From positions 1 to 30,190 of the forward strand of contig JBAXFC010000001.1 of NCBI GenBank assembly GCA_037140135.1: 30,190 nucleotides of DNA. Direction: 5' to 3'. The notes beneath the pieces are model-generated. The model saw only the letters and a list, made by a program, of their open reading frames with translations. It did no database searches and was not told the origin of the DNA. This DNA comes from Chloroflexota bacterium. Its GTDB lineage: Bacteria > Chloroflexota > Limnocylindria > Limnocylindrales > CSP1-4. The position numbers and the translations under genes were made by a program. This document shows, in pieces, positions 21,651 through 25,699 of the stretch (its first letter is position 1; the number at the start of each line of letters is the position of its first letter).

Positions 21651-24431
21651 ATGCAGCTCGACCGCTTCACCGAGAAGGCCCAGGAGGCCATCGTCACGGC
21701 CCAGTCGCTCGCGGAGCGCATGCAGAGCCCCGTGATCGATGCGGAGCACCTGCTCGCCGCGCTCGTGGAGCCGGACGACGGCATCCCCGCCGAGACGCTC
21801 CGGCGCCTGGGCGTGGACCTGGCCGCCTTCCGCGGCGAGCTGGCCGCGATCCTGACCCGGCGCGCCCGCATCTCGGGGGGCAATCTCGGCCTCGATCCGC
21901 GTGCCAAGCGGATCATCGACAAGGCCCAGGAGGAGGCGCGTCGCATGGGCGACGAGTACACCTCCACGGAGCATCTCCTCCTCGGCGCGGCCGATGCCGG
22001 CGGCGAGGTCCAGGCGCTCCTCGAGCGGCACCGCGCGGGCCGGGAGCAGATCCTGGGCGCCCTCCAGGGCGTCCGCGGCAACCAGCGCGTGACCACCGCC
22101 AATCCCGAGGCCACCTACCAGGCGCTCGAGAAGTACGGTCGGGACCTGACCGCAGAGGCACGTGCCGGCAGGCTCGACCCGGTCATCGGGCGTGACGAGG
22201 AGATCCGGCGCGTCATCCAGGTCCTGTCCCGCCGCACCAAGAACAACCCGGTCCTGATCGGTGAGCCCGGTGTGGGCAAGACCGCCATCGCCGAGGGCCT
22301 CGCCCAGCGCATCGTGCGCGGCGATGTGCCGGAGACGCTCAAGGACAAGCGCGTCGTGAGCCTGGACCTGGGTGCGGTCATCGCCGGGGCCAAGTTCCGC
22401 GGCGAGTTCGAGGAGCGACTCAAGGCCGTCCTCAAGGACATCAAGGATGCCGAAGGGCGCGTCATCCTGTTCATCGACGAGCTGCACACGGTCGTCGGCG
22501 CGGGCGCCGCCGAGGGCGCCATGGACGCGAGCAACCTGCTCAAGCCGATGCTCGCGCGGGGCGAGCTGCACACCATCGGCGCCACCACCCTCGACGAGTA
22601 CCGCAAGCACATCGAGAAGGACGCCGCCCTCGAGCGGCGCTTCCAGCCGGTGCTCGTGGACCAGCCCTCGGTCGAGGAGACCATCTCGATCCTGCGCGGC
22701 CTCCGGGAGCGCTACGAGGTCCACCACGGCGTCCGGATCACGGACTCGGCCCTGGTCGCCGCCGCCACGCTGTCCAACCGCTACATCACCGAGCGCTTCC
22801 TGCCCGACAAGGCCATCGATCTCGTCGATGAGGCGGCGAGCCGCCTGCGGATGGAGATCGACTCCATGCCCGTGGAGCTCGACGAGCTCGAGCGCCGCCG
22901 CATCCAGCTCGAGATCGAGCGCGAGGCGCTGCGCAAGGAGACCGACGACGCCTCACGGGCCCGCCTCGAGGTGCTGGAGAAGGAGCTCGCGGAGCTGTCC
23001 GAGCAGGCGGGCGCCATGAAGCAGCGCTGGGAGGCGGAGAAGTCCGCCATCGGCGCGATGCGCGCCACCAAGTCCGAGATCGAGCAGCTGGCCGTCCGCA
23101 TCGAGCAGGCCGAGCGTGAGGCCGACTACGGCACCGCCGCCGAGCTCAAGTACGGCAAGTCCCGCGAGCTCGCCGACCGGCAGGCGCAGCAGGAGGCCGC
23201 CATCCGCGCCCTGCAGGGCCCGGGCGCGCTGCTCAAGGAGGAGGTCGGCGCCGACGACATCGCCGAGATCGTGGGCGCCTGGACCGGCATTCCCGTCACC
23301 CGCCTGATGGAGGGCGAGATGGAGAAGCTGGTCAAGATGGAAGAACGTTTGCACGACCGGGTCGTGGGGCAGGATGAGGCGATCGCCGCCGTGTCGGACG
23401 CCGTCCGCCGCGCGCGTGCAGGCCTCAAGGATCCGCGCAGGCCCATCGGCTCGTTCCTGTTCCTCGGACCCACGGGCGTCGGCAAGACCGAGCTCGCGCG
23501 GGCGCTGGCGCAGTTCCTGTTCGACGACGAGCAGGCGATGGTCCGCATCGACATGTCCGAGTACATGGAGAAGTTCGCGGTGTCGCGCCTGGTCGGCGCC
23601 CCTCCCGGCTACGTCGGCTACGAGGAGGGCGGCCAGCTCACGGAGGCCGTCCGGCGGCGGCCGTACCAGGTGATCCTGCTCGATGAGATCGAGAAGGCGC
23701 ACCCGGACGTGTTCAACGTGCTGCTCCAGGTCCTCGATGACGGCAGGCTGACCGATTCGCAGGGCCGGACGGTGGACTTCAAGAACTCCGTCGTGATCAT
23801 GACCTCCAACATCGGCAGCCAGCAGATCGCCGCATTCGCCGGGCGCCCCGGCGGCGAGGCCTACGAGTCGATGAAGCGGGGCGTGACCGATGCGCTGCGC
23901 AGCTCGTTCCGGCCGGAGTTCCTCAACCGGATCGACGAGGTCATCGTCTTCCACTCGCTCACCGATGCGGACCTCGCGGCGATCGTGGACCTCTTGCTCG
24001 TGGAGCTGCAGGCCCGGATCGCCGCCAACGACCTCACCCTCGAGGTGACACCGGCCGCCCGGCTGCTGATCACTCGCGACGGCACGGACCCGGCCTTCGG
24101 GGCGCGGCCGCTCAAGCGGACGATCCAGCGCCTGGTCGAGAACCCGTTCGCGCGGGCGCTCCTCTCGGGGACGTTCAAGCCGGGTGATGTCGTCGTGGCG
24201 GACGCGGACCCGATCGGCGGGACGCTGGTCTTCACGACCGCGTCCGAGACGGTCGTGGCAAACGCGGCAGAGCGCCGGGACGCTCGCGGCTCGTCGGAGA
24301 GCGAGAACGCGCCGGCCGTCCGAACCGGCGGTGGTGACGGGCGCCGGTCCGCGTTCGACCTGCCGCCGCTCGAGGAGTCCAAGCGCCCCAAGAGCGACGA
24401 CGACAACCGCGGGGGCGGCCTCGTCAACTAG
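21651..24431 (+). CDS. clpB: ATP-dependent disaggregase ClpB with C-terminal extension
   Basis: GEPGVGKT and GPTGVGKT Walker A motifs, coiled-coil middle domain, GYVGYEEGG pore loop, [10 protein letters not shown]. Confidence 0.97.
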
Positions 24432-24452
24432 CCTGGCCGGCGCCGGGCCAGG
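24432..24452 (+). terminator. Stem-loop immediately after the clpB stop
   Basis: CCTGGCC-ggcgccg-GGCCAGG; no U tract. Confidence 0.4.
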
Positions 24453-24461
24453 GGCGCGATA

Positions 24462-24640
24462 TCTGCCAGACAGTCAAAGGACGAGTGCTCGTCCGGTCGC
24501 GCACGGCTGATTGCCGCCAGTTCGGCGCCTGGTGACTGGCTGTCATCGATTCGCGGCGGAATCGGGTCCGGGACGGGGGTTCCGGGCAACCGGACCGGGT
24601 CAATCGGTGTCGAGCAGTCGTTCTCTGACCAGGTGGCAGA
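24462..24640 (+). ncRNA. Highly structured intergenic element (ncRNA candidate)
   Basis: Long imperfect terminal stem 24462-24491/24611-24640 enclosing further helices, including a GCAA-tetraloop hairpin; G-U pairs favour the + strand. Confidence 0.45.
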
Positions 24641-24678
24641 AGATGGGCGGCCGACGCCGGAGGGGGCGGGGGCGCTCG

Positions 24679-25293
24679 TCAGCGAGCGGCCGGATCGGGA
24701 CCCCGCGTCGGTCCTGGAGCTCCGACGAGCACGTCGTGGAAGTGCCGCCAGGCGCGGAAGCGGAGGGCGCGCCCGCCGAACGCCGCGCCGTAGAGCGTCC
24801 GCGCCATGATGAACCCCACGACGCCGAGGACGGCCCCGGCCGAGTTCAGGATCACGTCGTTGATGTCGATGGTCCAGGACGGCAACGCCAGGCTCGACAG
24901 GTTGAGGAGCAGTTGCAGGCCCTCGATGGCGAACCCGAACGCGATCCCGGCGCCCAGGAGCGCGGCGATCGACCAGCCCCGCGTGATGAACGGCAGGCCG
25001 ATGCCGAACGGGACGCCCATGAGGAGGTTGTAGACGACCTGGTCGCGGGACATGGCGTCGCCGCCCGGCAGGAAGAACGGGTGGAGCCCGACCTGGACCA
25101 GCCACGGGCCTGCATCGCGGGCAAGCGCCGGGTCAAAGCGGATCGGCAGCAGGGCGTAGTGGGCGACGCCGGCGAGGTACACCGCGAAGATCGCCCGGGC
25201 TGCGGTCATCCCAAGGTCACGGTCGCCGCGGAGGTGCAAGAGCGCGACGGCTGCCAGCAGGCCGACCAGGACCAGGGCCGTGTCGATGACCAT
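24679..25293 (-). CDS. VanZ family membrane protein
   Basis: YNLLMGVPFG, AIEGLQL, TIDINDVILNSAG motifs; several TM segments. Confidence 0.85.
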   Translation of the reverse strand: MVIDTALVLVGLLAAVALLHLRGDRDLGMTAARAIFAVYLAGVAHYALLPIRFDPALARDAGPWLVQVGLHPFFLPGGDAMSRDQVVYNLLMGVPFGIGLPFITRGWSIAALLGAGIAFGFAIEGLQLLLNLSSLALPSWTIDINDVILNSAGAVLGVVGFIMARTLYGAAFGGRALRFRAWRHFHDVLVGAPGPTRGPDPAAR

Positions 25294-25370
25294 CAATCCC
25301 CCTGACATGCGCCAGCCGTGGCCACCAATGATCCGCTGGATCGCCCCGAACGGGTGGTCCGCTTTCGGTA

Positions 25371-25410
25371 TTGTCCACCTCGTTTCATCTGGCTATTCTA
25401 GCCAGATGAA
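25371..25410 (+). promoter_or_regulatory. Leaderless sigma70 promoter and operator palindrome of the TA operon
   Basis: TTGTCC-N17-TATTCT with ATG 6 nt later; TTCATCTGGCTA-ttc-TAGCCAGATGAA perfect 12-bp inverted repeat (25384-25410). Confidence 0.8.
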
Positions 25411-25699
25411 CACCGCAACCATCACCGAGGCCAAGAACGGGCTGTCTGCGCTGATCGACCGGGTGCGGGCGGGCGAGACCATCGTGCTCCTGGATCGGGG
25501 TGTGCCAGTGGCACGGCTCGAGCCGGTGGCAACGCTCGACGACCCGGAGGGACGCCTGCGCCGTCTCGAGCGCATGGGTGTGATCCGGCGAGGATCGGGA
25601 GCCAACCTGCTGGATCTGCTGGAGATGCCACCTCCGTCAACGACCGACGGGAGCTCGATCACGCAAGTGCTCCTTGATGAGCGGACGGAAGGCCGATGA
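25406..25699 (+). CDS. Type II antitoxin, Phd/YefM family
   Basis: MNTATITEAKNGLSALIDRVRAGETIVLLDRGVPVARLEP. Confidence 0.92.
   Translation: MNTATITEAKNGLSALIDRVRAGETIVLLDRGVPVARLEPVATLDDPEGRLRRLERMGVIRRGSGANLLDLLEMPPPSTTDGSSITQVLLDERTEGR

Follow-up and report, generated by a model that had tools for sequence, protein, structure and literature searches.

In the window analyzed here (a single stretch of DNA, 30,190 nucleotides at its full length), an extensively base-paired element lies just downstream of clpB. To judge from its sequence, this element is probably the solo form of a DNA palindrome with three boxes, a repeat cognate to a multi-copy family of helix-turn-helix (HTH) nuclease genes in Limnocylindria-type Chloroflexota of lakes and soils, in a DNA-level partnership that resembles the one between REPINs and RAYTs. 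Comparison of many copies shows the association of gene and repeat, the identity of the repeat's arm with codons of the gene, the helical phasing of the boxes, the placement of copies at the 3' ends of genes, and their patchy distribution. The earlier note on this DNA had described the extensive pairing at positions 24462 to 24640, an observation that is confirmed, and had taken it for a noncoding RNA (ncRNA) candidate; the reading as a dedicated ncRNA is not supported.

How is the element built? The source assembly is a lake-water MAG, 85% complete and in 681 contigs, and the element sits in the 247-bp gap between the convergent genes clpB (+ strand) and vanZ (- strand). It measures 173 bp between its outer GCCA/TGGC cores, with about 4 more paired nucleotides on each side; outward complementarity beyond the cores is 0.59, 0.70, 0.46, and 0.52 at positions 1 to 4, against a background of about 0.33. 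The arms have matrix scores of 46.3 and 41.7, compared to a reversed-genome control maximum of 14.5, and mismatch the arm pattern, YGCCA-N3-AGTCARAGGACGASTG, at 0 (distal, or D, arm) and 1 positions. The proximal (P) arm looks like coding sequence and copies the C-terminal tail of HTH-nuclease family proteins; the gene itself is absent beside it. A gene-linked copy on another contig of the same genome, C105, carries the same arm subtype at the gene's 3' end: a 19-mer, GACGACTGCTCGACACCGA, is identical in its arm and the window P arm, and the subfamily signature CTCGTCCGG is common to both D arms.

The third box, the internal (I) box, repeats the initial ~15 nucleotides of the P arm in direct orientation. 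At 24529 to 24545 it differs at 1 position from the family consensus TGCCAGnCAGTCRCCAG, a column block that is conserved in alignment A3. It lies 79 bp from the D-arm core (spacer a) and 93 bp from the P-arm core (spacer b); with the total of 173 bp, these values place the copy in lattice class (1,3), both spacers falling on a 10.5-bp lattice (described below). Together with a partial inverted partner, the I box forms the GCCAGT/ACTGGC hairpin that the earlier note had picked out, and a CTGGCG/CGCCAG block about 20 nucleotides from the I box is conserved in the same alignment. The spacer between the I box and the P arm keeps only its length class; its sequence is unalignable across family copies (alignments A1 and A3).

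Table 1. Features of the element and its surroundings (positions within the window)
Feature	Position	Strand	Description
Whole element, solo copy	24458..24644	-	Order on the - strand: proximal arm, internal box, distal arm
Proximal (P) arm	24604..24644	-	Reads CTGCCACCTGGTCAGAGAACGACTGCTCGACACCGA; translation LPPGQRTTARHR
Internal (I) box	24529..24553	-	TGACAGCCAGTCACCAG on the - strand plus adjoining CGAATCGA
Partial inverted partner of the I box	24513..24527	+	GCCGCCAGTTCGGCG
Distal (D) arm	24462..24497	+	TCTGCCAGACAGTCAAAGGACGAGTGCTCGTCCGG; inverted noncoding copy of the P arm
Variable spacer	24554..24603		Contains the CGATTC/GAATCG and TCCGG-GCAA-CCGGA hairpins
clpB	21651..24431	+	Pfam AAA_2 2.8e-72, ClpB_D2-small 3.8e-24, Clp_N; stop 30 nt upstream of the element
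VanZ-like gene	24679..25308	-	Convergent with clpB; Pfam VanZ 6.9e-12; stop 38 nt from the P arm
G+C-rich hairpin CCTGGCC-GGCGCCG-GGCCAGG	24432..24452	+	Directly 3' of the clpB stop; no T run; read from the sequence
Block of ~0.95 kb, element plus vanZ	24432..25384		Absent between clpB and the probable phd/yefM operator in G056 and G019

How widely is the repeat dispersed? Across the family it consists of two inverted arms of ~36 bp with the core YGCCA-N3-AGTCARAGGACGASTGCTCGTC, set 111 to 224 bp apart, and a very variable interior. The arm pattern occurs in 64 of the 70 species genomes of the genus, at about 1 to 15 elements per genome, and its matches in the 70 number 489, compared to 145 in a reversed control. 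As to copy number, a point that the earlier note had raised, the repeat is dispersed, and in the organism's own genome, scoring with a position matrix yields exactly two elements, the window copy and that on C105. Among 301 genomes of the class, the arm subtype hardly occurs outside the genus, apart from one sister-genus genome; two unpublished genomes in that set (G165 and G306) gave single chance-level matches, on which no claim is based. Named records with paired arms are all from Limnocylindrales, Chloroflexia, or Chloroflexota MAGs. Matches of a 16-mer scan of the genome collection outside Chloroflexota were mostly due to chance, and only 27 paired-arm loci were kept.

Copies lie between genes, at their 3' ends: the flanking genes, where they can be called, are convergent (11 cases) or tandem (9 cases) and never divergent; none of these copies overlaps a gene. 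No transposase-bearing long form of the repeat was found, arm pairs being 300 bp apart or less except in the element-gene-element units around the nuclease gene (described below). Seven seemingly lone arms in one genome (G041), each viewed with 6 kb around it, have a weak partner 150 to 175 bp away and no transposase. Direct repeats of 2 to 9 bp at boundary offsets of 0 to 14 are not in excess among 56 copies. The repeat thus has no target-site duplication, nor did any filled and empty site pair up with exact junctions. The case for movement of the repeat is therefore its patchy distribution. Copies within one genome have highly diverged interiors and are not near-identical. At a locus common to three genomes, the arms are kept, the interior is unalignable, and the length goes from 164/165 to 174 bp. 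Two kinds of irregular copy were also seen. In one genome (L034:1495-1653; G002:C39), the 12-nucleotide core of one arm is inverted in place, reading GTCAGAGGACGA for TCGTCCTCTGAC; the inverted core lies between flanking CAGTC...GACT, and both arms are therefore partly direct repeats. Elsewhere (L070:402-552, L083:399-637, L244:1228-1522, and L109:5436-5578), the same arm occurs twice or three times in tandem, forming small arrays with spacings of 40, 66, or 71 bp.

The lengths of the element are quantized. Pooled from GTDB genomes, from named MAGs, and from 24 contigs of metagenomes, 105 unique copies have lengths that cluster at 111, 131, 141, 152, 163, 173, 185, 195, and 216 bp, and total length has a Rayleigh R of 0.84 at 10.6 bp (null 99.9th percentile, 0.29). 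Both spacers follow suit: the I-to-D spacer is 69, 79.5, 90, 100.5, 112, or 122 bp long (R of 0.92 at 10.5 bp), and the I-to-P spacer is 61, 72, 82, 93, or 104 bp long (R of 0.92 at 11.1 bp). Fifteen lattice classes (a,b) occur, with equal totals reached from different spacer pairs containing unrelated inserted sequence, though the length classes could be due partly to descent from a few founders. In addition, A/T power in the interior peaks at 10.0 bp (z of 18 versus shuffles), a peak that is absent in the flanks. Total length changes by ~10.5 bp per step, the value of the helical repeat in double-stranded DNA, and the lengths argue for a reading at the level of DNA.

What gene does the repeat belong to? 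When flanks were compared with flanks, one recurrent neighbor emerged, a gene of about 250 codons (P0001 in G041; P0002 on the own contig C105). Its product has an N-terminal XRE HTH (Pfam HTH_31/HTH_3, ~1e-10) and a C terminus with weak MmcB-like and YraN matches (Pfam and NCBIfam); E102, D115, and E130-x-K132 are invariant in 24 diverse homologues. In an AlphaFold model (pLDDT of 89.5), the N-terminal part resembles HipB, ClgR, and restriction-modification (R-M) controller proteins, and the C-terminal half resembles restriction-like nucleases, namely, R2 RLE, SduA, NucS/EndoMS, and Mrr. On this model, the partner is an XRE HTH fused to a predicted restriction-type PD-(D/E)xK nuclease domain. 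A PDB sequence search with the nuclease half gave no match, PADLOC gave generic HTH matches only, and a homodimer prediction scored 0.35 against a mark of 0.42. The family has 3,328 database members at an E value of ≤1e-5, and the only names they bear are "XRE regulator" or "Holliday junction resolvase-like endonuclease."

The gene is found in 69 of the 70 genus genomes, with 1 to 17 paralogues in each. Within a genome these are 30 to 60% identical, and there is thus no sign of recent transposition of the gene. The own genome has five. The C105 gene (P0002) occupies positions 146 to 865 (L002) and carries an element at C105 34-185; the other four (C76:1377-2048, C468:1610-2254, C222:5214-5843, and C21:13364-13981) are 32 to 51% identical. 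At the 3' end of the C76 paralogue lies an inverted pair that is weaker and spelled differently, and no recognizable inverted pair was found at the 3' ends of the C468, C222, and C21 paralogues. P0002 itself diverges at residues ~148 to 172, just past the catalytic E-x-K, where it reads MQGCSPGSIGSGVSPAAWQSRAGGGW compared to MQAMLAGIDRKVRLAP..RGW in all homologues. Judging by the sequence, either a double frameshift that compensates itself or an error of assembly seems to be the cause, and the gene may be impaired.

In 18 of the 30 closest homologues of P0001, the element overlaps the 3' end of the gene: one arm, CTGCCAnnCAGTCAGAGGACGACTGCTCGACACCG, encodes the conserved tail LPSSQRTTARHRV, the last ~12 codons, and the other arm lies ~150 bp downstream. 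The arms are, in other words, an inverted duplication of the last ~12 to 15 codons of the HTH-nuclease gene. At five loci a second copy precedes the gene by ~140 bp and, wherever its orientation can be told, points the same way, and six loci (L233, L240, L247, L248, L249, and L271) carry element-gene-element units of ~1.05 to 1.18 kb with the repeats in direct orientation. Such units resemble the precursors of solo LTRs, in that recombination of the direct copies would leave a solo element. Distant subfamilies of the gene have differently spelled arm pairs at the same 3' site. Across genomes, the arm count is higher where the best gene homologue is closer (Spearman, 0.40). Three genomes (G006, G010, and G024) have many repeats and no close homologue of the gene, and in two (G005 and G073) the gene is close but repeats of the window arm type are nearly absent.

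Does the element belong with clpB? clpB is conserved in 69 of the 70 genus genomes, and similarity ends at its stop codon. In 19 of the 19 relatives' loci fetched, there is no arm downstream of clpB, which speaks against the heat-shock-linked small RNA (sRNA) tied to clpB that the earlier note had suggested. Nor does vanZ adjoin clpB in these 19 relatives, a tblastx hint in L095 being spurious. In G056 and G019 (L089 and L091), the clpB stop is followed after ~44 nucleotides by ATCTGGCTATTCTAGCCA-ATG of a phd/yefM toxin-antitoxin module, and the window regains homology to these genomes only at ~25385, the start of that module. Element plus vanZ (24432 to 25384) is therefore an insertion-type difference, definable at the level of this block against G056 and G019. 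The G+C-rich hairpin directly after the clpB stop is part of the inserted block, because it is absent from the clpB ends of both genomes. vanZ sits where gene-linked copies have the HTH-nuclease gene. A separate feature of the locus is a perfect palindrome, CTGGCTATTCTAGCCAG, at 25385 to 25405 of the window, directly before the phd/yefM start; it is kept in G056 and G019 (L089:2225-2250 and L091), there directly after clpB, and is probably the toxin-antitoxin operator. In contigs from four lake-water DNA runs, the element was seen in the source run and one other, and no joint skipping it was seen; coverage elsewhere was thin. All runs listed as containing the stretch are DNA runs of lake-water metagenomes, with no RNA run among them.

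As RNA, the element folds very stably. The + strand of 24462 to 24640 has a minimum free energy (MFE) of -93.6 kcal/mol, compared to a mean of -75.2 (standard deviation, 4.3) for shuffles, and none of 200 shuffles does as well (z of -4.25); the comparison proposed in the earlier note thus came out in favor of real pairing. The - strand has -82.4 kcal/mol and a z of -4.71 against its own shuffles. The fold is therefore not strand specific, since the lower energy of the + strand vanishes once composition is controlled, and the pairing, though real, belongs to a palindrome in the DNA. The outer pairings previously described, TCTGCCA/TGGCAGA, GTCA/TGAC, AGGACGA/TCGTTCT (with one G-U), and TGCTCG/CGAGCA, are all in the MFE fold; the inner helices come out partly different there, and the paired ends reach ~4 nucleotides further than was thought, to 24458 and 24644. 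A REP-like single-strand hairpin within each arm (AGTC-N7-GACT or GGACGA-N4-TCGTCC) was also considered and dropped, as variants are not compensated.

Could the conserved thing nevertheless be an RNA? One could picture a 3' untranslated element, whether bidirectional terminator, mRNA-stabilizing hairpin, or 3'-derived sRNA, common to the HTH-nuclease mRNA, clpB, and vanZ. The stable fold on both strands would suit it, as would the placement of copies at gene 3' ends and never between divergent genes, and in gene-linked copies one arm does lie inside the mRNA. Moreover, no canonical intrinsic terminator lies near clpB or vanZ: a promoter and terminator scan of 24300 to 25450 gave nothing, and the hairpin at 24432 to 24452 was not called. 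Arm pairing is slightly above shuffles as well (75.8% versus 73.0% over 37 arm pairs in 61 oriented copies), as is arm covariation in the same copies, a check that the earlier note had proposed (0.196 versus 0.150); a small excess of this kind is expected also under a pairing constraint, and subfamily structure alone can produce it. G-U pairs valid only on the + strand had been offered as a sign of selection on RNA, yet in 48 copies oriented by the gene or the internal box, G-U-type mismatches number 110 in the sense and 108 in the antisense direction, with 335 other mismatches, and arm mismatches are mostly of the transversion type. The N3 box is mostly unpaired (in 25 to 38 of the 61 copies), and the TGCCAGnCAGTCRCCAG box is a direct repeat of the proximal-arm start rather than a pairing partner. 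A rod-like RNA is expected to change length in steps of ~22 nucleotides; total length here changes in steps of 10.5. There is no Rfam family at an E value of ≤10 in 24000 to 25200 and no relevant match at the gathering threshold in nine other copies; after clpB, the element is not conserved in the 19 relatives. An RNA-level element is accordingly quite improbable, and the novel ncRNA or 6S/Ms1-like RNA once proposed is not supported, the repeat being dispersed, with helix-quantized lengths and with arms conserved as a sequence motif more than as base pairs. On the DNA-level reading, the RNA hairpin would be a by-product of the inverted arms that acts at most as a terminator-like or mRNA-stabilizing structure between clpB and vanZ.

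Two DNA-level alternatives deserve the same scrutiny. In a purely regulatory operator array, an XRE-HTH repressor would loop DNA, solo copies would be the operators of its regulon, nothing would move, and the nuclease fold would be used for oligomerization or sensing. Helically phased multisite arrays do typify looping regulators, for example, the tetrameric RcoLS20 on two operators (PMC4207663), the HTH resembles those of HipB, ClgR, and R-M controller proteins, and an orthologous locus has kept its arms through drift of the interior; the paralogues, too, are old. Set against this are arrays at gene 3' ends rather than promoters (0 of 20 between divergent genes), one arm within the regulator's own coding sequence, and catalytic residues (E, D, and E-x-K) that stay invariant in the 24 homologues; copy number, furthermore, ranges from 0 to ~15 between species of one genus, and the clpB site is filled in the own genome only. 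We regard such an array as unlikely, if less so than an RNA. A classical MITE, an internally deleted derivative of an insertion sequence (IS) with a DDE transposase, mobilized in trans, would account for terminal inverted repeats of ~36 bp, small size, several copies per genome, intergenic placement, and patchiness. It is very improbable all the same, given that the 56 copies show no direct repeat of 2 to 9 bp at any boundary offset, that no transposase lies within any arm pair spaced more than 300 bp apart and the HTH-nuclease gene is the only recurrent neighbor, that copies within a genome are diverged in the interior instead of near-identical, and that the arm derives from the 3' coding end of a nontransposase gene.

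Which known systems come closest to a nuclease-associated DNA palindrome? Classical bacterial MITEs and ERIC/Correia-type elements are imperfect palindromes of 100 to 200 bp with terminal inverted repeats that lie between genes and are often cotranscribed as hairpins. The window family is likewise small, intergenic, and an imperfect palindrome with terminal inverted repeats, but it has no target-site duplication or parent IS, its interior is hypervariable, its length is quantized, and its arms come from the 3' end of a gene. The attC site of integrons is an imperfect palindrome that immediately follows the stop codon of a cassette ORF and has core sites R''/R' (RYYYAAC/GTTRRRY). Here too a palindrome with conserved ends and a variable center follows a stop, and vanZ plus element resembles an inserted cassette. 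Unlike attC, however, the window copy ends in GCCA...TGGC with no R''/R' core sites, its neighboring genes are unrelated and form no cassette array, and its ends are strongly conserved in sequence and equal to the 3' end of a specific gene. The family thus lacks both the marks of a MITE and the features of attC. The phrase "MITE-like/insertion-site relic" in the earlier note was the nearest of its alternatives, for an element at the border of an accessory vanZ block, although this is no classical MITE, in view of the missing target-site duplication and the nuclease partner; the element is better described as a solo nuclease-associated, helically phased DNA palindrome.

In the loops of lac, gal, and ara, an HTH protein sits on several operators that are tens of bp to ~100 bp apart and must lie on the same helix face. 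The phased multisite design and the HTH protein are shared with looping XRE-type regulators such as RcoLS20 of plasmid pLS20 (PMC4207663); in those systems the operators lie around promoters and the proteins lack a nuclease domain, whereas here there are gene 3' ends, dispersed solo copies, and an intact nuclease motif. REPIN/RAYT systems, in which REP doublets go with REP-associated tyrosine transposases (Bertels and Rainey, 2011, PMC3116915; PMC5581495), are similar in that short palindromes are dispersed extragenically as inverted doublets able to form hairpins, that a dedicated enzyme gene, unlike those of ISs, has its own type of repeat on its flanks, that repeat type tracks enzyme lineage, and that repeat populations are long lasting. 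They differ in that the enzyme here is an XRE HTH plus PD-(D/E)xK nuclease rather than an HUH/Y1 (IS200/IS605-like) transposase, its gene is multi-copy (1 to 17 per genome) with one arm in the coding sequence, and three boxes are phased as double-stranded DNA, in contrast to REPs, which are recognized as single-stranded hairpins; the family also has no GTAG/CGTC tag. Length periodicity is shared with the internally eliminated sequences (IESs) of the ciliates Paramecium and Blepharisma, in which it has been explained by the geometry of the excision complex (PMC9942856). Those are eukaryotic, bounded by TA, excised by a domesticated PiggyBac-type excisase, and present in tens of thousands (PMC9942856); the repeat described here is bacterial, occurs a few times per genome, is built of three boxes with a PD-(D/E)xK partner, and is known from sequence alone. 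Literature searches for a gene-plus-repeat system or for length-periodic bacterial MITEs returned only the work on ciliate IESs and REPIN/RAYT.

How might the nuclease and its palindrome work together? The boxes are candidate double-stranded DNA binding sites for an oligomer of the cognate HTH-nuclease, here the product of the C105 gene. The protein would hold the three boxes on one helix face and loop or wrap the ~150 to 175 bp between them. By analogy with the RAYT transposases and their REPINs, the nuclease complex would then copy or maintain the repeats, and solo copies could arise by nuclease-dependent copying or through recombination of the two direct repeats found around some genes. Taken as a whole, this amounts to an undescribed bacterial selfish or domesticated DNA system in which a nuclease sits on three phased boxes, loops ~150 bp, and copies or maintains its own palindrome, a proposal that is tentative and for which the odds are somewhat less than even.

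If it is true, this would be the first prokaryotic repeat family with lengths quantized by the turn of the DNA helix, at once a bacterial counterpart of the periodicity of ciliate IESs and a non-HUH analogue of REPIN/RAYT. To our knowledge, REPIN/RAYT is the only known pairing of a bacterial enzyme gene with its own dispersed palindromes, and a second, mechanistically unrelated enzyme class would stand beside it should the reading of the element as a nuclease-associated repeat hold. What began as an "ncRNA candidate" would become evidence for a DNA-protein machine. The 10.5-bp quantization of two independent spacers would predict that all three sites share a face of the helix and that the DNA between them loops or is wrapped, a structural prediction of a kind rarely obtainable from sequence. 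For the Chloroflexota, the practical consequence is that these repeats should be masked in ncRNA screens, and they may mark the borders of accessory DNA, as at the vanZ block.
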